Assembly: GCA_038227375.1 (NCBI GenBank)
Contig: JBBRPY010000005.1
Span: forward strand, 457 to 64,456
Length of the DNA: 64,000 nucleotides
From: Dehalococcoidia bacterium
GTDB lineage: Bacteria > Chloroflexota > Dehalococcoidia > DSTF01 > JACRBR01
Reading direction: 5' to 3'
The translations under genes and the position numbers were made by a program. Position 1 is the stretch's first letter. Each line of letters begins with the position of its first letter. A model generated the notes under the pieces. That model did not search any database. It worked only from the letters and a program-made list of their open reading frames with translations, and was not told the DNA's origin. This document shows, in pieces, positions 8,885 to 62,508 of the stretch.

Positions 8885-9738
8885 GGCGCTCCGGTTCCGG
8901 AGAGCGGCTTGAAGACGCGCTCGTAGATCGCGCGCACGTCGTCGGGCGGCAACCCGTTGCCGAGAAACTGGTCGCCCGCGCGCACCTCGAAGTGGAGATG
9001 CTCCTCGATGCCGGGATTGGAGAGTGATTCCGGCGTCCCGGAGTCGCCGACGAAGGCGATGGTCTCTCCCTGCACCACCTTCGAGCCCACTTGAACATGT
9101 GCGGCGATGTCCGAGAGATGCGCGTACCGCGTGATGATGCCCTTCCCGTGATCGATCCAGACCTGACGCCCGCGGAAGAGGTCGACGACGTCGGGATCGT
9201 TGGCCTGGCCATCAGCAATACGACGGTTCGCGGCATCGAGTTCACTCTGGGTGAGGTTGCTGTACGCGCGATCGGCGCGCACGACGGTGCCATCCTTCGC
9301 CGCCATCACCGCCGTGCCCTTGACGATGGTGGTGCAGGCGTCGTAGCCGTAGAAGTCGACCCCCTCATGCACGCCGCCGCGGTATGTACGCGGGGCGTTG
9401 GGCATGAGCTGATCGCCGACCGGCAGGCAGGCGCCTTTGATGGGATAGATGAAGTTGGTGAAGACGCTAAGGTCTGCGGTCGCCGGTGTTGGCGTCGCCT
9501 GCGGCGTCTCCGCCGTCCGCGTGCGCGCGGCGCCGGACGCGCCGCTGCAGGCCGCGGCGGCAGCAGCGAGCGCAACGAAGAGCAGCAGAAGGGACGGGCG
9601 CCGCCTCAGACCAGTACCGACCTTTCGCCCCGTGTCAACCGATGCCCCCCGCCGGGCACAGGTTTGGTGATCGTAGCTCCGGGTGTACGCAAGGATACCG
9701 AACGAGCGTCCCTGAGATGAACGTGAACGCTGGGGCAC
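8881..9738 (-). CDS. M23 family metallopeptidase lipoprotein (LytM domain)
   Basis: C-terminal M23 motifs (HEGVDFYGY...HLHFEV). Lipoprotein signal RRRPSLLLLFVALAAAAAACSG. No canonical start sits directly before the signal peptide. The nearest in-frame start is GTG at 9736-9738, so the start is uncertain. The 429-aa ORF in the track is over-extended. Confidence 0.65.
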   Translation of the reverse strand: MPQRSRSSQGRSFGILAYTRSYDHQTCARRGASVDTGRKVGTGLRRRPSLLLLFVALAAAAAACSGASGAARTRTAETPQATPTPATADLSVFTNFIYPIKGACLPVGDQLMPNAPRTYRGGVHEGVDFYGYDACTTIVKGTAVMAAKDGTVVRADRAYSNLTQSELDAANRRIADGQANDPDVVDLFRGRQVWIDHGKGIITRYAHLSDIAAHVQVGSKVVQGETIAFVGDSGTPESLSNPGIEEHLHFEVRAGDQFLGNGLPPDDVRAIYERVFKPLSGTGAP

Positions 9739-16360: not shown

Positions 16361-16476
16361 GCGCACCGGGCAGTAGTTCATCGTCGCACGGTAACAAGCG
16401 CGCTCTGGTGTCAAGATGGGTGTGTTCGCGTACGTCCGCACCAGCGACCAGCGACCAATGACCGGCCGACCAGAAC

Positions 16477-41387: not shown

Positions 41388-42026
41388 CTACCTCGTCTGC
41401 GTCAGGTCGTCTCCCAGCCCGGCGGCGAGGAGATGGGCGTTATCGCCCAATTGCAATAACGTCGCCTGCCCCGCCTGCATATCCAGCACGGTGCGGGTGG
41501 CGAGCGGCTGCCGCAGGCGCCGGAACTCGCTGAGCGGCAGATTCAGGGCGCGGCAGGCGAGCGTCAAGATGACGAAATTGTGCGTGACCACCACCACCTG
41601 TCCCGACGGCCACGCCGAGCGTATGCGCTCGACGGCGGCCCACGCGCGCGCCTGCACCTCTCGCAGCGTCTCGCCCCCGGGCATGCGCGCGTCGCCGGCA
41701 TCATCCGAGAGCCACTGGCTAAGGAACTCCGGATAACGCTCGCGAAGCTCGGCGGGCGTCAGGTGCTCCATTTCGCCGACGTCCATCTCGATCAGGTCCG
41801 GCTCCAGCGCGATGGGGCAGCCGGTGGCAGAGGAGACCGACTCTGCCGTCACGGCGCATCGCTGCAACGGGCTCGAGTAGATGGCATCTGGCGCCAGGGT
41901 CAGCGTCGAAGCGAGCGCCCGCGCCTGCGCGTGGCCACGCTCGTTCAGCGCCGCATCCGCACGGCCGAGCGTTAGGCCGCGCCGGTTGTGCTCGGTCTCG
42001 CCGTGCCGCATCAGGATCAGCCGCAT
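41388..42026 (-). CDS. histidine phosphatase family protein (phosphoglycerate mutase-like)
   Basis: LMRHGETEHN RHG motif. Start at ATG 42024-42026, so the ORF track N-terminus is over-extended. Confidence 0.8.
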   Translation of the reverse strand: MRLILMRHGETEHNRRGLTLGRADAALNERGHAQARALASTLTLAPDAIYSSPLQRCAVTAESVSSATGCPIALEPDLIEMDVGEMEHLTPAELRERYPEFLSQWLSDDAGDARMPGGETLREVQARAWAAVERIRSAWPSGQVVVVTHNFVILTLACRALNLPLSEFRRLRQPLATRTVLDMQAGQATLLQLGDNAHLLAAGLGDDLTQTR

Positions 42027-42868
42027 CAGCTCGCGAACCGCCCGCGCTTTCGCCAGGCGTCGCGGGAGGGAGATGTGCCCGCGAGGATCAGCTTCGTGCG
42101 GTGAATCCGCAGCGGCGTACCGAATCCGAGCGCGAGCGCTACTTGCTCCGGACGGCCGCTGCCCGTGTTGTCGTTCTTCAGTCGCATCCGCAGCGACATG
42201 CGTTCGCCACCGGCGTCGATGAGGGCGATGCGCTCGACCTGCGCACGAATGTCGTATGAGCGCACCTCGTCGTCGCGCTTGTGCTGCCACGGCACGGTGG
42301 CCGCGCTCATGAATGCGTCTATGGCTGCTTCCGGCGTGCGGACGATGGATGTTGGATGTTGGATGTTGGATGTTGGATGCGCGCTTCCAGCCTCCAGCTT
42401 CCAGCCTCCAGCTTCGCCCGCACCTGCGACCGTACCCGCCTGCACCTCAACCCCAGCTTCCAGCTTCCAGGCTCCAGCTTCGGCGACATCCACGACAGCC
42501 GCCTGCACTTCAACCAGATATTCCGCGAAGCGGACGTCGGCCTGGAGCGCGGGCAACGCCAATCCCGCTTCCTCGACGGCGACGATCGCCATCGCCGGCG
42601 GCAGCTGCTTCGTGGCGTCGAGCAGGAAGGTCTTTGGTGCGATCCGTTCGTCCATGAAGACGTCCATCAGCTCGGCCTCGCTCGTCGTGCCGACGGGGAG
42701 CGGCGCGGCGAGCGAGAGCTGCGCGTGCGGGGAGAAGCCCTCGGAGTACGCGACGGGCAGTTGTGCGCGCCGCAACGCCCGCTCCCAGAAGCGCATGAGG
42801 TCGAGGTGCGTGATGTACTTCAGTTCCTCGCCGCGTCCGAAGGTGACCCGCAGCCGCTGCACCTTCAT
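42026..42868 (-). CDS. DUF2344/TIGR03936 family (radical-SAM-associated) protein carrying an in-frame heptamer-repeat insertion
   Basis: N-terminus MKVQRLRVTFGRGEELKYITHLDLMRFWERALRRAQLPVAYSEGFSPH. The central segment ...AGAWKLEAGVEVQAG...GGWKLEAGSAHPTSNIQHPTSI is encoded by tandem heptamer repeats at 42345-42483. Confidence 0.7.
   Translation of the reverse strand: MKVQRLRVTFGRGEELKYITHLDLMRFWERALRRAQLPVAYSEGFSPHAQLSLAAPLPVGTTSEAELMDVFMDERIAPKTFLLDATKQLPPAMAIVAVEEAGLALPALQADVRFAEYLVEVQAAVVDVAEAGAWKLEAGVEVQAGTVAGAGEAGGWKLEAGSAHPTSNIQHPTSIVRTPEAAIDAFMSAATVPWQHKRDDEVRSYDIRAQVERIALIDAGGERMSLRMRLKNDNTGSGRPEQVALALGFGTPLRIHRTKLILAGTSPSRDAWRKRGRFAS
42345..42483. repeat. STRR-like heptanucleotide tandem arrays inside a coding region: (GGATGTT)x4.5, (CTTCCAG/CCTCCAG)x4, then (CTTCCAG)x3
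   Basis: Read directly: ggatgttggatgttggatgttggatgttggatgc gcgc ttccagcctccagcttccagcctccagcttcg ... ccccagcttccagcttccaggctccagcttcgg. Confidence 0.75.
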
Positions 42869-47334: not shown

Positions 47335-47420
47335 GCCGGGGTGGCGGAATTGGTATACGCAGCGGACTTAAAATCCGCCGGCCGCAAGGCATTGTGGGTT
47401 CGAGCCCCACCCCCGGTACC
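47335..47420 (+). tRNA. tRNA-Leu (anticodon TAA), class II with a long variable arm
   Basis: Acceptor GCCGGGG/CCCCGGT. Anticodon stem-loop GCGGA-CTTAAAA-TCCGC. 15-nt variable arm. T-arm GTGGG-TTCGAGC-CCCAC. Discriminator A and an encoded CCA. Confidence 0.85.
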
Positions 47421-47526
47421 AGATTCCACCGCCGCTCCGTGCCTGACTTCGCAAGTCTGGTTGGATGATCCGGCTCCGGTCCGGACCCGCAACAGGCGCT
47501 CTTGCCCGCCTCGATACAATGAACAC

Positions 47527-51207: not shown

Positions 51208-53200
51208 GGGTCCGCGAACCAGCAGCCGTCACGGCCGCCTCCTGCTCGGGGCGGCCGTCTCGTTATGTGCGGCTGCCGTGATGCTCGCCGCGTGCAGCGG
51301 CTCGAAGAAGGGACGGGCGCCGACAGACACGCCGGGCGCCGGCAGCGGCGCCACCGCCACGGCTGCGGTGTCACCTCCTGCGCCCGCGGCGACCGTACCG
51401 GCGCAGAATGCCGAGCTCTCAGGGCAGATAGGCGTCCGCGCGGCGCTGCCCTTGAATCGACCGATTGACCTCGCAGCGGCATACGGTCGCACGCGCGGGC
51501 CCGCGCCCGCCGCCAAGCCATTCGCCGGCGAAGCGAACCTCGGTGACCATCGCGCCTTCACGGTGGTGGAGCTTTCGACGGGTGTGCTCGAAGGGACAGC
51601 GCCGCCCGGCGTTCGCGCGATCGACGGCGTCTTGCTGGGCAAGAGTGCGCACGCCTACTTCTACCAGGACGCGGCGATCGGCTCCGAAGCGGCGAGCGTC
51701 CAGGCCGCGGCCGACCTGTTCGAGGCGACGGTCTGGCCCACCGTCATCGGCGTGTTCGGCGAGCCCGCGGCTCCGGGCGTCGATGGCGACCCACGGATCA
51801 TCGTCCTCCAGGCGGACCTCGGCGGCGCCGCCGGCGGCTACTTCCAGACGGACGACCTCTACCTGCGGGCGGTGCATCCGCTCAGCAACGAGGCCGAGAT
51901 GGTGTACATCGACCGCACCCTCAAGCCCGGGACGGCGGCGTTCAACGTCGTGCTCGCGCATGAGTTCCAGCACCTGATCCACGCCAGGAACGACATCGCG
52001 GAGGAGTCGTGGGTGAACGAAGGCCTGTCGGAGGATGCGTCCGGGCTTGTCGGCGCCGCCGTTTCGTCGGTGAACTCCTTTGAGGCGCACCCGGAGACGC
52101 AGCTCAACGACTGGACGAGCACCCTCGTACACTACGGGGCCGGCGCGGCGTTCTTCCGCTACTTCGCCAGCCGCTGCGGTGGCGACCCGACGCTCGGCGC
52201 GCTCGCCCGCGCGCAGCAGCACGGGGCGGCCGGCGTCGACGAAGTGCTCGCGTCGATGGGCCAGCCGCTGCCCTTCCGCGATGTCTTCGCCGACTGGGCG
52301 GCCGCCAACATCCTGAATCGCGACGACGGCCCCTATGGGAACCCCGGTCATCCGCTCGACCTCCGCATCAACGACGAGCTGACGGCAGGCGCGGCGGTGG
52401 ACGGCACGGCGGCGCAGTTCGGCACCAACTACTACCGGCTGGGTGGCCTCGACCAGGGCGAGTACACGCTCCGGTTCGACGGCCAGCCGGGTGTGCGCGT
52501 GCTGCCGACCGACCCGCCACCTGGGAGCAGCGCCATGCTCTGGGGGAACGCCGAGGACGGCATCGATACGCGCCTGACGCGCGCCGTCGACCTCACCGGC
52601 GCTACGGACCCGGTGCTGACCTTCCAGACGTGGTTCGACATGGAGCGCTGGTACGACTGGGGGTACGTCGCCGTCTCGACGGATGGCGGTGCGAGCTGGC
52701 AGGCGCTGCCCGGCGGCCGCTCCAGCGCCAGCGACCCCGTCCAGGTGGCACTGGGGCCGGGATATACCGGCAAGAGCGGCGATGGCGCCGACCCGGCGTG
52801 GGTGACCGAGCGCGTCAGCCTGGCGAAGTACGCCGGACAGAAGGTGCTGGTCCGGTTCGAGTACGTGACCGATGGTGGCACGCACCGAGAGGGCTGGTCC
52901 ATCGCGAACGTGGCGATCGAGGGCACGAGCTTCCGCGACCCGACGCTCAGCGACCCCGAATGGCAGTCCGAGGGCTGGGTGCGCATCGACCGCCCGCTGC
53001 CGCAGACCTACGTCGTGCGGCTGATCGAGAGTCGCGCGGACGGCACCGCAAGCGTCCTCGACGTCCCGCTGGACGCCGCCAACCGCGGCGTGCTGCGCTT
53101 CTCCGCCGCGGGCGTCGAAAGCGCGACGCTTGCCATCGCCGGCAGCACCGAGGGCACTAATCAGAAGGCGGCGTATCGGATGGAGCTGGGACGGCCGTAG
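51116..53200 (+). CDS. putative secreted/lipoprotein zinc metalloprotease (HExxH)
   Basis: Lipobox-type signal LLLGAAVSLCAAAVMLAAC. HEFQHLIH zinc-binding motif with a downstream E. The start is uncertain: the only canonical in-frame start before the signal is ATG 51116, which overlaps the xerD 3' end by 92 nt. A CTG at 51242 is the alternative. Confidence 0.6.
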   Translation: MPIFPRRRSTRTSATSTSARCTRKPTLAPDRGPRTSSRHGRLLLGAAVSLCAAAVMLAACSGSKKGRAPTDTPGAGSGATATAAVSPPAPAATVPAQNAELSGQIGVRAALPLNRPIDLAAAYGRTRGPAPAAKPFAGEANLGDHRAFTVVELSTGVLEGTAPPGVRAIDGVLLGKSAHAYFYQDAAIGSEAASVQAAADLFEATVWPTVIGVFGEPAAPGVDGDPRIIVLQADLGGAAGGYFQTDDLYLRAVHPLSNEAEMVYIDRTLKPGTAAFNVVLAHEFQHLIHARNDIAEESWVNEGLSEDASGLVGAAVSSVNSFEAHPETQLNDWTSTLVHYGAGAAFFRYFASRCGGDPTLGALARAQQHGAAGVDEVLASMGQPLPFRDVFADWAAANILNRDDGPYGNPGHPLDLRINDELTAGAAVDGTAAQFGTNYYRLGGLDQGEYTLRFDGQPGVRVLPTDPPPGSSAMLWGNAEDGIDTRLTRAVDLTGATDPVLTFQTWFDMERWYDWGYVAVSTDGGASWQALPGGRSSASDPVQVALGPGYTGKSGDGADPAWVTERVSLAKYAGQKVLVRFEYVTDGGTHREGWSIANVAIEGTSFRDPTLSDPEWQSEGWVRIDRPLPQTYVVRLIESRADGTASVLDVPLDAANRGVLRFSAAGVESATLAIAGSTEGTNQKAAYRMELGRP

Positions 53201-53207
53201 CGCCTGG

Positions 53208-53270
53208 GCTGTTGGAGGCTGGAGGCTGGAGGCTGGGGTGTCGGAAGTCGGAAGTCGGAGGTCTGCAGGC
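53208..53270. repeat. STRR-like heptamer arrays (GCTGGAG)x4 and (GTCGGAA/G)x3
   Basis: gctgttggaggctggaggctggaggctgggg tgtcggaagtcggaagtcggaggtctgcagg. Confidence 0.75.
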
Positions 53271-53302
53271 GTTTGGGGCGAGCGAGATGCTTTTCAATGG
53301 CG

Positions 53303-54726
<1,424 letters not shown>

Positions 54727-54763: not shown

Positions 54764-54985
54764 TGGCGGATGTTAGATGTTGGATGTTGGCGGGGATCGG
54801 CCGGCGCCTTGGGCGCGAGCATTGGCTCCAGGCTTGCGTGCGAACTGGGCTCCCGGTGGGCGAGCCGGGCGCGGTCGAGTTGCGGATGTTGGATGTTGGG
54901 GGGGACGGCCGGCGGCCTGGGTGCGAGCATTGGCGCCAGGCCTTGCGGGTGAACCTTGGCTGCGCGAGCTAGGCGCGGTCGAGTT
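54764..54985. repeat. minisatellite: two ~105-115-bp direct tandem units, each beginning GCGGATGTT(A/G)GATGTTGG and ending GGCGCGGTCGAGTT
   Basis: Unit 1 is ~54764-54881 and unit 2 is ~54882-54985, about 85% identical. A third, truncated unit merges into the hairpin element at 54999-55053. Confidence 0.7.
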
Positions 54986-54998
54986 GCGGATGTTTTAA

Positions 54999-55053
54999 GT
55001 TAGATGTTGGAGGTTGGAGGGGCTCGGCCAACTAACATCCAACATCTAACATC
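54999..55053. repeat. palindromic heptamer-built element, copy 2, downstream of eno (same stem sequence as 53303-53376)
   Basis: gttagatgttggaggttggagg ggctcggcc aactaacatccaacatctaacatc. Confidence 0.65.
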
Positions 55054-55061
55054 GACCGCTT

Positions 55062-55079
55062 CCCGGAGAAGTCTCCGGG
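55062..55079. terminator. GC hairpin CCCGGAG-aagt-CTCCGGG, a candidate (bidirectional) terminator
   Basis: 7-bp perfect stem ~50 nt downstream of the minus-strand ACAD gene stop. There is no U-tract, which is common in high-GC genomes. Confidence 0.35.
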
Positions 55080-55125
55080 ACGAGTGACCGCCCCGACGAC
55101 CGATGACCGACGACTGGTCCCACCG

Positions 55126-56289: not shown

Positions 56290-56343
56290 GCGGGGCTCCT
56301 GCGCTGCGGCACTGCCGGTGCCCGAGTATACGCACGCCTGGTC

Positions 56344-56399
56344 GTTGGAGGCTGGAGGTTGGAGGCTGGAGGTTGGAGGTTGGAGGTTGGAGGTTGGAT
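56344..56399. repeat. STRR-like heptamer array (GTTGGAG/GCTGGAG)x8
   Basis: gttggaggctggaggttggaggctggaggttggaggttggaggttggaggttggatg. Confidence 0.8.
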
Positions 56400-56425
56400 G
56401 CCTGGCGGACGCCGATCACCGGCGA

Positions 56426-56475
56426 GCCCTCACCCCGCCCTTCGGGCAACCCTCTCCCAGGAGGGAGAGGGGATC
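56426..56475. repeat. REP-like hairpin element, direct copy (CCCTCTCCC-agga-GGGAGAGGG)
   Basis: GCCCTCACCCCGCCCTTCGGGCAACCCTCTCCCAGGAGGGAGAGGGGATC. Confidence 0.5.
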
Positions 56476-56514
56476 GCACGCGATTGGTGGTGCGAAAATG
56501 TTGGCGCCTTCGCC

Positions 56515-56600
56515 CCCGACGACTCACGACCGACGACCGTCGCCCCCACGACTGCCGACCGGCGCCGACGACGCCGACCGACGACCGACGACCGGCTGAT
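56515..56600. repeat. heptamer arrays of the CGACGAC/GACGACC type
   Basis: cgacgactcacgaccgacgaccg...gccgaccgacgaccgacgaccgg. A similar array lies at 55084-55117 on the other side of the ACAD gene. Confidence 0.5.
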
Positions 56601-57320: not shown

Positions 57321-58210
57321 TGATGCAGCCGCCGCTCCCCACGCCCGGCCAGCGCGTCAGCGGCATCGACATCCCGGAGACGTTCGCGCTGCCGGGCAAG
57401 CCGGACGAATCGGCTCCCGCCGCCGTCCGCGGCGCCTACCGCCAGACGCAATTTGCGCTCGGCAAGGACCTGCGCCTTTTCGCGGAGGGCATGAACCTGC
57501 AGCTGGCGATCCTGCGCGACTCGTCGCACTCGCGCTACCGCACGCACGCCTATGCCGCCGTCGTTGGCGCGTGGTCGCGGGCGTACATGGCCCTCGGCGA
57601 TGCGGCGCTGCTGGTCACGCGCGGCTCCTACGCGTCGGCGCCGAACGTCGTGCGGTCGGTGTGCGAGCTGATCGCCGCCGAGCATCAGCTGCAACGCGAA
57701 GAGATGCCCGAGTTCGTCGGCTGGATGCTGGGCCATCTGAAGCCGGATGAAGAGCACAAGGCGTTCGACATCGGTCTCGGCCACTACTTCGCCGGGACGA
57801 CGCTAGCCGCCGATGCCGAGTTGCGGCTGCTCTATCGCGCCGCGAGTGACCTCGGCCGCCCCAACTTCGGCGCCACCCTGTTGGCGGCCGGACCGGAGTC
57901 GAACAACCTGCGTCTGGCGCTGAACTTCGCCGACCCGTCGTTCCACTTCGGCTGGGCCGAGATCGAGCTGGGCTGGTTGCTCCGCCTCTGCGAGCGGCAG
58001 CTCGCGGTGGCGGTGCATATGCCGGAGGTGCTGAACATCACCGCCGATACCCACACCGCCTATGCGGCGTACGGCGCCCGGGTGCAAGAGACGCTGTCGA
58101 ACCCCGCCCGCGCCCGCATCGAGGAAGTGCAGTCGGGCGAATTCAAGCGCTGGCTGGTCCACAACTTCCGCCGCCAGCCGTCCGGCGCGCCGAAGAAGAT
58201 GCTGCTGTAG
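57320..58210 (+). CDS. hypothetical protein, translationally coupled to the J-domain gene
   Basis: 296 aa. ATGATG overlaps the TGA of the J-domain gene. Coherent composition with no motifs. Confidence 0.55.
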   Translation: MMQPPLPTPGQRVSGIDIPETFALPGKPDESAPAAVRGAYRQTQFALGKDLRLFAEGMNLQLAILRDSSHSRYRTHAYAAVVGAWSRAYMALGDAALLVTRGSYASAPNVVRSVCELIAAEHQLQREEMPEFVGWMLGHLKPDEEHKAFDIGLGHYFAGTTLAADAELRLLYRAASDLGRPNFGATLLAAGPESNNLRLALNFADPSFHFGWAEIELGWLLRLCERQLAVAVHMPEVLNITADTHTAYAAYGARVQETLSNPARARIEEVQSGEFKRWLVHNFRRQPSGAPKKMLL

Positions 58211-59107
58211 CCGGATGGTGATTGGTGACTGGTGATTCGTCGCTTGTGACCACCGATGCGCCGTCAGGTGCAGATTGCCGTGAGGTCCCGCTGCAAGCGC
58301 CCGAATCAGCGTGGGGTCGTGGCCGAGGCACTCGTGCTCGACGAAGCGGAACACTGCCAACCACTGGCTGAAGCTCAAATGCGATGCCGGCGCGTCAGGC
58401 GCGAAGCAGTGATCGCGCGCGAGGCGCTTGACCTGGCGCGCCGTCAGCTCGCGGCGTAGCGTCGCCCAGAGCCCGTGCGTGAAGGCCGCCGTCGTCAGCG
58501 ACCGATATCGCGCGGCCGCCGTCGGCTCGACAAGCGGCACAAAGCGGCGTTCGATGCGCAGCAGCGCGCTTTGCACACGCGGCGGCGGCGTGAAGTTCCG
58601 CCGGTCGATGACGGCGACGATGGCGATCTCTGACCACGGCTTGTGCAGCAGCGAGAAGAGCGTCTCCCGCGGCGTACCGGCGAACTTCTCGGCCGCCTCG
58701 CGCTGCACGATGAGGGCGGCGATGTCGGGCGGACGCGCCGCGTGCAGCAGTTTGCGGACGACGGCCGCGGTGATGCCGTAGGGCAGGTTCGAGGCCGCGC
58801 AGTATGCGGTCGATGGCAGAGCGAACTGCAGGGCATCCGCCAGCACGCACTCGACGTTGCCACGACCGGACATCCGCGCGCACAGCATCGCGTGCAGCCG
58901 AGGGTCCTTCTCGATGGCGATGACGCGAAAGTCGGCGCTACATAACGCTTCGGTGAGCATGCCGTCACCCGCGCCGGGCTCGACGACGAGCGCGCCCGGC
59001 GGCAGGCGCATCCGCTGCACGAGGGCGCGCGCGACGGCGGCATCACGCAGGTAGTGTTGCGACAGTTCGGGGCGGCGATGGACGGTCCTGGAGTTGATGC
59101 GGCGCAT
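57803..59107 (-). CDS. rRNA adenine N6-methyltransferase family protein (KsgA/Erm-like) with apparent loss of its stop codon
   Basis: QHYLRDAAVARALV...VVEPGAGDGMLTEAL...ASNLPYGITAAVV. Homology ends near 58330. The frame then runs ~170 codons of R/G/Q-rich antisense-like sequence to a stop at 57803, overlapping the convergent gene by ~400 bp. Confidence 0.55.
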   Translation of the reverse strand: MRRINSRTVHRRPELSQHYLRDAAVARALVQRMRLPPGALVVEPGAGDGMLTEALCSADFRVIAIEKDPRLHAMLCARMSGRGNVECVLADALQFALPSTAYCAASNLPYGITAAVVRKLLHAARPPDIAALIVQREAAEKFAGTPRETLFSLLHKPWSEIAIVAVIDRRNFTPPPRVQSALLRIERRFVPLVEPTAAARYRSLTTAAFTHGLWATLRRELTARQVKRLARDHCFAPDAPASHLSFSQWLAVFRFVEHECLGHDPTLIRALAAGPHGNLHLTAHRWSQATNHQSPITIRLQQHLLRRAGRLAAEVVDQPALEFARLHFLDAGAGGVRQRLLHPGAVRRIGGVGIGGDVQHLRHMHRHRELPLAEAEQPAQLDLGPAEVERRVGEVQRQTQVVRLRSGRQQGGAEVGAAEVTRGAIEQPQLGIGG

Positions 59108-59410
59108 GCGGCACCTCCGGCCGGCGGAGGCGTCGTGTCGCACGAAACGCGGGAAACGGAAGGCGCGGCAACGACGCCGTCAGCAGGCACACAAACGAGA
59201 GTCCTGTGACAGGAGGTAAGACCGACTGAGGGATCAGCCGGGTGTCCGCGTTGAGCGGACCGTTAGCGTCGTAGGCGTATGATCGCGCACATCATTTCTT
59301 CGCACATGCTATCGACGGTCGTGAGCGCCGTCAATTCCGGGTGGGATGCGACGATGAGCGCCAATTCCCTAAACCTCGCCGCCCGCAACACTGCGGGCGC
59401 CGGCAGCAAG

Positions 59411-61018
59411 CTAACGAACGATTTCGCTGACCGGCACGAGCGTGCGCGCGAGCTCGCGCTGGTAGGCGGAGACGGCGCGCGCGATATCGTCGTCGCTCCA
59501 GCCGAGGCGCTGCGCCATGACGCGCGCGGCGCGCTCGGCGCCGTCGAGCGCGTGGCACTTGCTCCAGCCGACGGGCAGGCGCCGCAGCAGCACATCCGCG
59601 AGTGTCACTGCCTGCTGGCGATCGACGGCGTACGCAACCTGCGCCAGCAGCTCCGGATTGTGCGCGCAGATCTGCTCGCCCAGTGCGGGCTCGGCGGCGA
59701 TCAGCGCGCGCACTTCGTCCCCGCGCCGTCCGTACACCCCAAGCGGGTCTCGCTGAGGCCAAGGTCCAGCCTCCAGCCTCCAGCCTCCAGCTTCGCTCGC
59801 ATGCGGAACCGCACTCTCGCCCACACGCTCGCCGCTCGGCGCGACATGCTTCCGGATCGCCGCCAGCGTCATCCGCGACAGCGCGCGGTACGTCGTCAGC
59901 TTGCCGCCGACGATCGTCAGCAGGCCATTCGGGCCGCCGCGTTTCACGTGGTCGATGACGAAGTGGCTGCGCGAGATCGTGCTCTCATCGCCGCCGGTGT
60001 TGTATGGCAGCGGGCGGACGCCGCAATAGGTGTACAGCACGTGCTCGGGAAGCAGCGGTGTCGCGGGGAAGAGGCGGGTCGCCTCCCGCAACAGGTAGTG
60101 CAGCTCGTCCGGCGTGCAGCGGGCCTGCGACGGGTCGCCGTCGAAGCGCAGGTCCGTCGTGCCGATCAGCGTGTAGCGATACCAAGGCAGGATGAAGAAT
60201 GGGCGGCCATCCTCTTTCGCCGAAGCGAAGATGGCGTGTTCTGGACCGCCCGGCCACTCGACGACGAGATGGCTGCCCTTCGTGCCGCTGAGCAGCCGGT
60301 CGTGGCGCTCGGCGTCGCTGCCTGCGAGCACCTGCTCCACCCACGGTCCGGCCGCGTTCACGACGCATTTCGCCTCGACTTCGGCGCGGGCGCCCGTGCA
60401 TTCGTCGCGCAGCTCGACGCCGCGCAGCACGCCGCCCGGCGATATCAGGCGCACCGCCGCGACGTGATTGATCGCGGTGCCGCCCGCATCCGTCATCTCG
60501 CGCACCGATTCGGCGACGAGGCGCTCGGGGAACTCGACCTGCGCGTCGTAGAAGGTGTAGGCCGCGCTGAGCCCATCGCGGTTCAGGCCCGGCTCATAGG
60601 CGTCGAGGGCGCTCGATGGCATCGCCCGGTGACGCGGCAGCGACTTGCGGAACGAGAGCAGGTCGTACAGCGTCAGCCCGGCGCGCACCTTCCACGCCGG
60701 CCGCTCGTCGCCCCGATACACCGGCGCCAGCAGGCGCAGCGGGCGCACGAGGTGCGGCTCCTCGCGTATGAGTGTCTCGCGCTCCGCCAGCGACTCGTAG
60801 ACGAGCCCCACCTCGCCGTGCTCGAGGTAGCGCAGGCCGCCATGGATCAGTCGCGTCGCGCGTGCGGTCGTCCCAGCGCCGAAGTCAGCGCGTTCCACCA
60901 GCAGCGTCCGATATCCGGCGAGTGCCGCGGCGCGGGCGATGCCGGCGCCGTTGATGCCGCCGCCGATCACGAGCACGTCAAACGAAAGCTTCGCGATATC
61001 GCTGACGTCCGGCCTCAT
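59411..61018 (-). CDS. glpD: glycerol-3-phosphate dehydrogenase (FAD-dependent)
   Basis: [24 protein letters not shown]... dinucleotide-binding motif. Start at ATG 61016-61018, overlapping the glpK stop. Contains an in-frame (GCTGGAG)x3 insertion. Confidence 0.9.
59765..59796. repeat. STRR-like heptamer array (CTCCAGC)x3-4 inside glpD, encoding ...[11 protein letters not shown]...
   Basis: tccagcctccagcctccagcctccagcttcg. Three heptamers total 21 nt, so the reading frame is preserved. Confidence 0.75.
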
Positions 61019-62508
61019 CGCGCCCAGCCCGTCGCGCGCTCGACCGCGCGGCGCCAGCCGTCCACCAGGGTGTCGCGCTCCGCCGCCGCCATCCGCGGTT
61101 CGAAGACGCCGCCGGAGCGCCACATCGCCGCAAGCTCGCGTTGATCCTGCCAGAACCCCACAGCCAGACCTGCCAGGTACGCCGCGCCGAGGGCCGTCGT
61201 CTCAGCCGTCGCCGCGCGCACTACCGGCCGCTGCAGCACGTCGGCTTGCATCTGCATCAGCAGGTCATTGGCGACGGCGCCGCCATCGACACGCAGCTCC
61301 TGGATGCGCGCGCCGGTCTCGGTCTCCATCAGCTCGACGACGTCCAGAGTCTGGAGGGCGATCGATTCGAGGGTCGCGCGGGCGATGTGCGCCGACGTCG
61401 TGCCCCGCGTGATGCCGACAATCGTGCCGCGCGCGTACATGTCCCAGTACGGCGCGCCCAGCCCGGCGAACGCGGGCACGACGTAAACGTCGCCGCTCGA
61501 AGGGACGGTCGCCGCGAGGGTCTCGCTCTCCGCGGCGGTCTTGATGACGCCGAGGCCGTCGCGCAGCCACTGCACCGCGGCGCCGGCGATGAAGATGCTC
61601 CCTTCGACCGCGAACTGCCGTGTGCCGGCGATGCGCGACGCTACCGTCGTCAGCAGCCCGTGCTCCGAAAAAACGGGCTCGCTGCCGGTGTGTTCGAGCA
61701 GGAAGCAGCCGGTGCCGTAGGTGTTCTTCGCTGTGCCCGCGTCGAAGCACGCCTGGCCGAAGAGCGACGCCTGCTGGTCGCCGGCGATGCCGGCGATCGG
61801 TATCGCCCGGTCGAAGATCTCGGGCGCCGTCTCGTCGATGACGCCGCTGCTGTCGATGATCGCCGGCAGCATCGCTTGCGGGATCGCGAGCTCCTTGAGC
61901 ATGCGCGCGTCCCAGCCGTCCTCGCGCAGGTTGTAGAGCATCGTGCGCGAGGCGTTGGTCGCATCGATGACGTGCACGGCTCCGGCCGTGAGCTTATGCA
62001 CCAGCCACGAATCGACGGTGCCAAACGCCAGCTCTCCCGCCTCGGCGCGCGCCTGCATGCCCTCGCCGGAGTGATCGAGTAGCCAGCGCACCTTCGTGCC
62101 AGAGAAGTAGGCGTCGATCAGCAGCCCCGTGCGGGAACGCACCTCGGCTTCGAGCACGCGGGCGCGCAGATCCTCGCAGATTGCGGCGGTGCGGCGGCAC
62201 TGCCAGACGACGGCGTCGTTGATCGCCCGGCCGGTGGCGCGGTCCCAGACCAAGGTGGTCTCGCGCTGGTTCGTGATGCCGATGGCGGCGATCTCGCCGG
62301 GCCCGGCGCTCGCAGTGGCCAGCGCCTGGCGCGCCGCGTCGAGCTGCGACGACCAGATCGCCTCCGGGTCGTGCGAGACCCAGCCGGGCTGCGGGTAGAC
62401 CTGGGGGAATTCGACCGCCGCCTGGGCGACGGGCGCGCCGCCGTGGTCGAACAGGATCGCCCGCGAGCTGGACGTCCCCTGATCGAGCGCCAGGATGTAC
62501 TTCGCCAT
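61015..62508 (-). CDS. glpK: glycerol kinase
   Basis: [21 protein letters not shown]... with FGGY kinase signatures throughout. 497 aa. Confidence 0.95.

Follow-up and report, generated by a model that had tools for sequence, protein, structure and literature searches.

Tandem arrays of 7-nt units are dispersed through the DNA of a group of uncultured, high-GC Dehalococcoidia (Chloroflexota), both between genes and within the reading frames of conserved proteins. The present analysis is based on a 64-kb stretch of a contig from the metagenome-assembled genome (MAG) of an uncultured Dehalococcoidia bacterium (hereafter the window), together with gene-centred loci of its relatives. It focuses on two window genes that carry heptamer arrays in frame, namely glpD, for a glycerol-3-phosphate dehydrogenase, and a gene for a radical-SAM-associated DUF2344 protein. 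[quoted passage not shown] The principal support comes from identical unit families and a common leader and tail at unlinked genic and intergenic sites. Moreover, the genic copies are in frame and lie in segments modelled as disordered, the DUF2344 segment is an insertion relative to empty sites in orthologues, and repeat cassettes have turned over at the glpD site. The nearest loci in the genome collection belong to Dehalococcoidia MAGs with an identity of at most 64%.

Heptamer arrays in glpD and the DUF2344 gene

The glpD gene (59411-61018, minus strand) encodes an FAD-dependent glycerol-3-phosphate dehydrogenase/oxidase of 535 aa, as assigned by Pfam, NCBIfam, database identity and Protein Data Bank (PDB) homologues. 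The open reading frame (ORF) matches the Pfam families DAO (1.5e-54, 186 bits) and DAO_C (1.7e-14, 54 bits), both over the gathering score, and NCBIfam PRK12266 (2.8e-96, 323 bits), the latter under the curated equivalog cut-off of 360; its product is 100% identical to a 535-aa database protein (P0121) and homologous to PDB entries 3DA1 and 2QCU. The DAO_C match covers profile positions 38-124 only, and the repeat-bearing linker stands in for the first third of this domain. The stop codon of the upstream glpK gene (61015-62508) and the start codon of glpD share an ATGA overlap at 61015-61018, which indicates that both genes form a translationally coupled glpK-glpD operon.

By using Tandem Repeats Finder (TRF), a regular-expression scan and the translated peptide, an in-frame array of the form AGCTGGA(GGCTGGA)x3 was located at 59765-59792 on the minus (coding) strand, where the plus strand at 59765-59791 reads TCCAGCC x3.9 with 100% exact copies. 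An initial annotation, made from the sequence alone, had described three copies plus a remnant; its location and peptide were correct, but the array holds about four exact copies. Directly 5' of it lies the leader GCGAGCGA (59793-59800, minus strand; repeat families D3 and D6), which fits the GCG(G/A)GCGA / GSCGA leader preceding other arrays in the window and in two related loci (L001 and L081). The array is one-armed and is read in frame inside the inter-domain linker, at residue ~410 of 535. In an AlphaFold model of GlpD built from the orthologue alignment, the predicted local distance difference test (pLDDT) score is below 50 for residues 402-419, and residues 390-424 are modelled as coil.

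The DUF2344 / TIGR03936 gene (42026-42868, minus strand; 280 aa) was recognised by PF10105 (3.4e-44) and TIGR03936 (1.8e-49), and the TIGR03936 match, which scores 168.3 bits against an NCBIfam cut-off of 71.9, falls into two stretches split by an insert. Three arrays were detected by TRF, namely TGGATGT x4.9 (42346-42379), TCCAGCY x3.9 (42386-42412) and CCAGCTT x4.1 (42453-42481), which are jointly translated in frame as AEAGAWKLEAGVEVQAGTVAGAGEAGGWKLEAGSAHPTSNIQHPTSIVRT and correspond to residues ~130-170 of the 280. They are situated in a variable segment of 174 nt (42335-42508, minus strand; residues ~121-178) that was delimited by the orthologue alignment, a loop table and DNA alignment with L151 and L001. 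Within this segment, pure arrays total ~90 nt instead of the roughly 140 bp estimated in the initial annotation.

The first GW array of the insert, AGCTGGA GCCTGGA AGCTGGA AGCTGGG (42453-42481, minus strand; TRF), has the leader GTCGCCGA and encodes EAGAWKLEAG. The other two arrays form the arms of a degenerate 88-nt palindromic element (42336-42423, minus, coding strand), which was defined by its sequence and by folds that pair its termini and arms. Its layout is GTGCGGGCGA-(AGCTGGA/GGCTGGA)x4-AGCGCGC-(ATCCAAC)x4.9-ATCGTCCGCAC, encoding GAGEAGGWKLEAGSAHPTSNIQHPTSIVRT, and it is bounded by a 10-nt terminal inverted repeat (9/10 matching), GTGCGGGCGA ... TCGTCCGCAC. The two arms give rise to GWKLEAG and PTSNIQH; the second of them, an (AACATCC)x4.9 array (42346-42379, minus strand; TRF 100%), encodes HPTSNIQHPTS and contains only the stop-free unit variant. 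A non-repeat spacer of ~55 nt and a conserved tail also belong to the insert. In addition, an array and its flank are duplicated in frame within it (42386-42435 vs 42452-42501, 74% identity, spacing 66 nt or 22 aa; repeat family D6). The AlphaFold model of the DUF2344 protein, likewise built from the orthologue alignment, has pLDDT below 50 for residues 130-166 and coil for residues 132-178, between a strand (112-122) and a helix (179-188). The surface-loop placement proposed by the initial annotation is in line with these models, in which both segments appear as low-confidence coil.

Arrays of this kind are greatly enriched in the window. Eight exact period-7 runs of at least 18 nt were found, in comparison with 0-1 for periods of 5, 6 and 8-12 nt, and seven (NNN[TC]GGA)x3-or-more arrays were seen in 64 kb, in comparison with 0.12 expected from 100 Markov-1 simulations (simulation maximum, 1). 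The in-frame arrays reported earlier for both genes are therefore present above chance. The period-7 unit families in the window are GGAGGYT, GGATGTT/AACATCY, GTCGGAA, CCGACGA and TGGTGAT, and their copies are distributed over six intergenic clusters and three ORF-internal sites. Common units and leaders recur at 42.3, 53.2, 54.8, 56.3 and 59.8 kb: arrays are frequently preceded by a leader (GCGGGCGA, GCGAGCGA, GTCGCCGA or GGCGGA) and followed by GCGCG or GGGGAYCGGCC (repeat families D1-D6), and a leader related to GCGGNCGA stands ahead of other copies. Related units (AACATCY, CCGACGA, GGAGGCT and CACCAAT) were seen again in close relatives. On the other hand, heptamer arrays are mostly absent from more distant Dehalococcoidia, with L062 as an exception. 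The heptamer habit is patchy and its units are lineage-specific, as with cyanobacterial STRRs.

Linker turnover, insertion and the reading frame

The array-bearing linker of glpD runs between GKLTTYR...PS and DPLxxYG and is hypervariable clade-wide. Among the 46 orthologues compared, the median linker length was 24 aa for linkers with a GW motif (n=14) and 23 aa for those without a recognisable repeat motif (n=22), with 28 aa in the window; similar or longer segments occupy this position in the GlpD proteins of E. coli and Bacillus (2QCU and 3DA1 alignments). A net insertion in glpD, as claimed by the initial annotation, is ruled out by the linker-length table and these alignments, and equally long repeat-free orthologues are the very outcome that the annotation itself had named as speaking against it. 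The repeat overwrites an existing linker without adding length.

Different cassettes occupy this linker in different orthologues. Fresh arrays consist of GGAGGCT in the window and L084, GGAGGAT in L096 and GGACGAT in L081, whereas L082 and L083 carry a CACCAAT array after the palindrome GGGCACGCGGCCGCGTGCCC (peptide VGARGRVPA). A perfect palindrome, GGACAGGTCTTCAGACCTGTCC (peptide TDRSSDLSS), was found in L086, and a near-identical one with a TTTA loop (peptide TDRSLDLSS) in L087; variants of these TDRS-type palindromes are present in at least eight database orthologues. L082, L083 and L096 come from one metagenome, and their glpD genes are 91-94% identical outside the linker; at the linker itself, L096 has the GGAGGAT cassette, whereas L083 has the hairpin and CACCAAT cassette. 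Even L082 and L083, which are 91% identical, differ in copy arrangement and in linker length (36 vs 33 aa, or 31 vs 28 aa with other anchors). The array unit of these two linkers is also that of the ATCACCA array in the 3' tail of the RrnaAD ORF of the window. All cassettes in the compared glpD linkers are in frame, and at the level of the sequences compared these results demonstrate a rapid turnover in which the frame was always kept.

For the DUF2344 gene, the picture is one of net gain. In the alignment of 34 orthologues, the two conserved halves are joined by a loop of 7-10 aa in insert-free proteins of 228-231 aa and of 59 aa in the window; a 244-aa subclade has in common a 23-aa loop with one decaying GGWKLEAG segment, and proteins with a composite GW...PTSNIQ segment have loops of 43-59 aa. 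An empty 10-aa loop is found in P0002 and P0008, the closest relatives of the window protein, which have a core identity of 79% and the same synteny. The variable segment replaces the 7-10 aa loop and amounts to a net gain of 147 nt (49 aa) over the closest insert-free orthologue. The alignments confirm the segment as a true lineage-restricted net insertion between conserved halves, and here the initial annotation was right. The fact that 147 nt equals 21 x 7 was taken as a coincidence, given that the net change is +39 and +132 nt in other orthologues.

L154 and L155 are 87-93% identical at the nucleotide level in the flanks of the DUF2344 insert but only 57% within it, and their units are switched in both arms (GGAGGAT/AACATCG vs GGAMGCT/AGCKTCC). 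The first array consists of GCTGGAR units in the window and of GATGGAR units in L001, with one base changed in every unit, implying a concerted change. Moreover, L001 carries a perfect (CCAACAT)x4 array at the same DUF2344 site, although its protein is only 64% identical. Such divergence of the glpD cassettes and DUF2344 inserts, combined with perfect arrays at 64% identity, suggests ongoing homogenisation and replacement rather than the simple relic of one ancient insertion. The initial annotation had noted neither this recurrent occupation of both protein sites in orthologues nor the dispersed family, hairpin elements included, to which the arrays belong. In a hairpin test that compared DNA folds with 200 shuffles, the DUF2344 inserts gave z-scores of -4.68 (L155), -2.5 (L001), -2.3 (L154) and -1.65 (window).

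Since 7 and 3 are coprime, any 7-nt unit gives one 7-aa repeat, and the peptide encoded by an array does not depend on the frame. For example, NIQHPTS arises from the AACATC-type array and TNHQSPI from CACCAAT, and the translated hairpins follow the pattern GW...-loop-P(T/A)S(N/S)(I/F)Q. Most units lack stop codons on both strands. The intergenic copies of the AACATC family have AACATCC alternating with AACATCT (AGATGTT on the opposite strand), by which TAA or TAG is introduced, whereas the genic AACATC arrays of the window and L001 contain the stop-free variant only; similarly, CACCAAT occurs in genes only in the orientation free of TGA. This difference between genic and intergenic copies of the same family supports the earlier suggestion of selection after insertion.

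The proposed rule by which tolerated arrays must add up to a multiple of 21 nt does not hold for the arrays themselves. The array lengths are 27-28, 34, 27-28 and 21-29 nt, and partial units and non-repeat spacers restore the frame; what stands is that a frame-keeping slip must amount to +/-21 nt. Slips of +/-7 or +/-14 nt would shift the frame of both genes, and for glpD the predicted products are 436-564 aa long with aberrant C-terminal tails. Each of the 19 glpD loci stays in frame across the arrays, and the 34 DUF2344 orthologues in the alignment are neither truncated nor frameshifted there. A short glpD homologue, P0237 (466 aa), lacks its N-terminus, not the array region.

Origin and maintenance of the arrays

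The favoured explanation is that of a dispersed family with two forms, direct arrays with a single arm and palindromic hairpin elements with two, in which a short leader and tail are conserved. The family would reside mostly in intergenic spacers, from which copies would land, or in genes expand. Judging from the surviving copies, a genic copy would persist only when its site is a disordered, length-tolerant linker, when its units in sense orientation are free of stops in all frames, and when the overall change in length is divisible by 3. Fixed arrays would then be homogenised and resized by slippage, which could account for the unit-wide substitutions, and whole cassettes would also be swapped quickly at the same permissive sites. 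Spreading may have relied on hairpin-dependent transposition or ectopic recombination, in addition to slippage, and the encoded peptides seem to be neutral passengers rather than functional elements.

It is also conceivable, albeit unlikely, that each array arose in place as a simple sequence repeat (SSR) by local slippage from a chance proto-repeat in the linker, with neither insertion nor mobility. The arrays are indeed tandem and short, in many bacteria heptanucleotide SSRs outnumber the other long SSR classes (PMC4679880, PMC4692102), the unit-wide substitutions between the window (GCTGGAR) and L001 (GATGGAR) and between L154 and L155 suit homogenisation by slippage, and the glpD linker shows no net gain. 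However, such an origin would not readily explain why a small number of unit families, which have the leader GCGGNCGA/GSCGA in common, are found again at unlinked genic and intergenic sites and in different genomes, why some copies are two-armed palindromes with putative terminal inverted repeats, or why the DUF2344 insert also includes a conserved tail and ~55 nt of spacer that is not repetitive; cassettes of unrelated units, one of them beside a GC hairpin, were also swapped among orthologues 91-94% identical outside the linker. Less probable still is a single ancient insertion in the ancestor of the clade, inherited vertically and then decayed or deleted, with the present arrays as relics. 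It would agree with six 244-aa DUF2344 proteins (P0004, P0007, P0013, P0018, P0041 and P0065; 84-94% identical) that have one decaying GGWKLEAG segment in a loop of constant length (23 aa), and with the order GW-array, loop, PTSNIQ-array and AG(R/N)(D/E)G tail in several subclades. On the other hand, perfect arrays survive at a flanking protein identity of only 64%, the closest relatives of the window gene carry no insert, unrelated cassettes occupy glpD orthologues that are 91-94% identical outside the linker, and units within arrays differ systematically among genomes.

The initial annotation had raised the possibility of phase-variable protein length, i.e., contingency loci in which changes of single 7-nt units switch GlpD and the DUF2344 protein on or off or adapt their length. 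This is very improbable. Slips of one or two units would shift the frame of both genes and slips of three would not, and L082 and L083 (91% identical) do differ in copy arrangement and linker length, although always in frame. Nevertheless, frameshifted or truncated alleles number 0 of 19 glpD loci and 0 of 34 DUF2344 orthologues, the arrays have only 3-5 copies and are remote from the 5' end (residues ~410 of 535 and ~130-170 of 280), and the genes concerned are core metabolic or housekeeping genes, one of them in the glpK-glpD operon. Each of the two proteins has a single member sequence in the database listing, which contains no close strain variants. The chance that the linkers are low-complexity peptides under functional selection, with a Trp motif for contact with the membrane or a partner, for example, is smaller again. 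A single Trp (TGG) is kept in most decayed GW-type linkers of both proteins, but this retention would equally fit young arrays or the TGGA core of the DNA unit. Furthermore, the motif is missing in the nearest DUF2344 orthologues and in 22 of 46 glpD orthologues, unrelated peptides (NHQSP and DRSSDLS) take its place in close relatives, and the segments are modelled as disordered.

Several observations weigh against the dispersed-family explanation itself. Slippage alone can create and homogenise tandem arrays, and a single early insertion that was later lost in places could underlie the insert architecture common to several DUF2344 subclades. The glpD array has no hairpin (DNA fold z = +0.12), and that of the DUF2344 insert in the window is weak, with 12 of 200 shuffles equally stable. 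At the DUF2344 site, the flanks are too diverged from the empty sites for a target-site duplication to be definable. Ten neighbouring genes were tested and none encodes a transposase; one of them specifies a XerC/D-type tyrosine recombinase. Translation of the repeat segments is deduced from intact reading frames only. In addition, the evidence base consists of the one 64-kb window and the gene-centred loci, and the ratio of genic to intergenic copies holds for these rather than genome-wide.

A bolder version of the dispersed-family explanation, which can be advanced only tentatively, is that the heptamer-stem hairpins constitute an active, undescribed family of non-autonomous mobile elements of uncultured Dehalococcoidia. 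Such elements would hit the same 60-90-nt linkers again within ~6% amino-acid divergence, and slippage of the stem units would make their length adjustable. If this is true, the family would be a general generator of hypervariable but always in-frame linkers, and the equivalent, in free-living bacteria, of the RPEs of Rickettsia, with a microsatellite built into it.

Other repeat copies, known systems and significance

Outside the two genes, repeat copies were found in several parts of the window. Intergenic copies identified by TRF and a unit scan lie at 16440-16473. Downstream of an InhA-like protease gene, the arrays (GCTGGAG)x3.4 and (GTCGGAA)x3.4 occupy 53210-53263 (plus strand; TRF and regular-expression scan), and a heptamer-stem hairpin, GGCGGATGTCGGAAGTTAGATGTTGGAGGTTGGA...TCCAACATCTAACATCCAACATCTAACATCGCC, was revealed by folding at 53296-53390 (plus strand) in the intergenic region upstream of enolase. 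Its DNA fold has z = -4.55, a stability reached by 0 of 200 shuffles, and z = -2.99 was obtained for the RNA fold of 53200-53385. The genes for enolase and acyl-CoA dehydrogenase converge on a spacer rich in repeats (54765-55114; repeat families D1, D2, D20 and I13), which include GGATGTT arrays, AACATCY arrays in inverted orientation, a CCGACGA array and the hairpin CCCGGAGAAGTCTCCGGG (55062-55079). Part of it (54776-54994) consists of a 104-nt unit x2.1 with 82% identity, and each copy is headed by a GGATGTT array, implying that heptamer arrays may be parts of larger composite repeats. A divergent intergenic region (56343-56594; TRF and regular-expression scan) contains (GYTGGAG)x8, the hairpin CCCTCTCCCAGGAGGGAGAGGG (56450-56471) and degenerate CCGACGA arrays. 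An array-hairpin-array layout is seen twice, with the GC-rich CCCGGAGAAGTCTCCGGG and CCCTCTCCCAGGAGGGAGAGGG each amid a GGAGGYT/AACATCY cluster and a CCGACGA cluster.

The third ORF-internal site is an (ATCACCA)x3.1 array (58216-58237, minus strand; TRF), encoding TNHQSPIT, in the 3' tail of an RrnaAD methyltransferase ORF (57803-59143). It is located ~35 aa beyond the end of the RrnaAD domain and adjoins the stop codon of a convergent gene (58208-58210); the ORF has no stop at the array and continues for ~135 codons antisense to its neighbour. It is possible that the array pushed the genuine stop codon of RrnaAD out of place or eliminated it. The neighbours of the glp region include enolase, uvrC and xerC/D-like genes. 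A search of Rfam returned no RNA family over the arrays and matched only a tRNA. A tRNA-Leu (anticodon TAA) at 47335-47421 (plus strand) lies just upstream of uvrC in a stop-to-stop ORF before the real uvrC start.

Longer arrays and other units were observed elsewhere. L062 (Dehalococcoidia MAG CedChl2, 54% GC) contains ten exact arrays within 20 kb, none of them made of the units described above, L085 has (CCCTAGT)x13.6 at 9327-9421, and L154 has an ACATCAA array of ~17 copies at 24-147. When a synthetic GWRLEAG/NIQHPTS query was compared with a public protein database, 323 proteins were matched, the best 120 of which are mostly hypothetical proteins of 45-125 aa from many phyla and taxa, including Enterobacteriaceae, Pseudomonas, Burkholderia, Marichromatium and cyanobacteria. 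The likeliest origin of these short proteins is erroneous gene prediction across heptamer arrays, and the query was uninformative on protein families that host such peptides (best 120 of 323).

RPEs, which are translated in frame as selfish repeats, are an established precedent (Ogata et al. 2000, 2002; PMC10969869), and in-frame intragenic MITEs are also known (PMC10969869). Like RPEs, the present repeats are dispersed, non-autonomous and, in some copies, palindromic, occur in frame in unrelated housekeeping genes as well as between genes, and add extra peptides at fold-tolerant sites. Unlike RPEs, they are found in Chloroflexota/Dehalococcoidia rather than Alphaproteobacteria, their stems consist of tandem 7-nt units with an arm length that slippage can vary, and they measure ~30-90 nt rather than ~100-150 nt; one-armed arrays occur too, and different cassettes have repeatedly entered one and the same protein site. 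The heptamer units have no evident relation to RPEs, as judged without RPE sequence comparison. By this analogy, the family is a functional analogue of the RPEs, not a member. With REP sequences, bacterial interspersed mosaic elements (BIMEs) and MITEs such as ERIC, Correia and Nezha (PMC10969869), it has in common the dispersal of short repeats that form hairpins and cluster in intergenic spacers, a putative terminal inverted repeat in one or more copies, and occasional in-frame intragenic copies. The differences are that only the present repeats have heptamer periodicity, that diverged flanks leave no definable target-site duplication, and that no REP-associated tyrosine transposase (RAYT) or insertion sequence (IS) partner was identified in the ten neighbouring genes.

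Heptamer SSR families have been reported as TAACTGA in Beggiatoaceae and cyanobacteria (PMC4679880) and as GGGNATC in Xanthomonas and Nostoc (PMC4692102), and heptanucleotide SSRs are usually under-represented in coding regions (PMC4679880, PMC4692102). The similarities to STRRs and such SSRs lie in tandem 7-nt units that belong to a small number of genome-specific families and are dispersed, for the most part between genes and usually in 2-8 copies, but are sometimes found within ORFs in a stop-free orientation that yields a 7-aa repeat. In the present family, however, the units differ and have no G-quadruplex motif, the arrays often form pairs of inverted arms, of which the leader and tail are conserved, and the genic copies lie in conserved enzymes, where they could be compared with orthologues having empty or alternative sites. 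Cyanobacterial STRR units include CCCCAGT, TTGGTCA and CAACAGT. They are not matched by the window units GGAGGYT, GGATGTT, GTCGGAA, CCGACGA and TGGTGAT. The contingency loci of host-adapted pathogens similarly involve a tandem repeat within an ORF and a unit length that is not a multiple of 3, but the arrays described here are short, internal or late, located in housekeeping genes and accompanied by no out-of-frame alleles among orthologues. Literature searches returned nothing linking heptamer or heptanucleotide repeats with Chloroflexi or Dehalococcoidia.

These findings reveal no new regulatory or phase-variation mechanism. For annotation, heptamer arrays account for odd low-complexity segments and length variation in conserved proteins, most likely for many tiny hypothetical proteins in databases and possibly for the run-on 3' end of the RrnaAD ORF. 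With regard to the biology of these bacteria, the favoured explanation would extend translated selfish DNA in housekeeping proteins from the obligate intracellular Rickettsia to free-living, uncultured Chloroflexota, and would link two repeat classes that are usually kept apart, i.e., heptanucleotide microsatellites and palindromic REP/MITE-like elements. It may also be concluded that a succession of different repeat cassettes can overwrite a disordered enzyme linker without loss of the reading frame.

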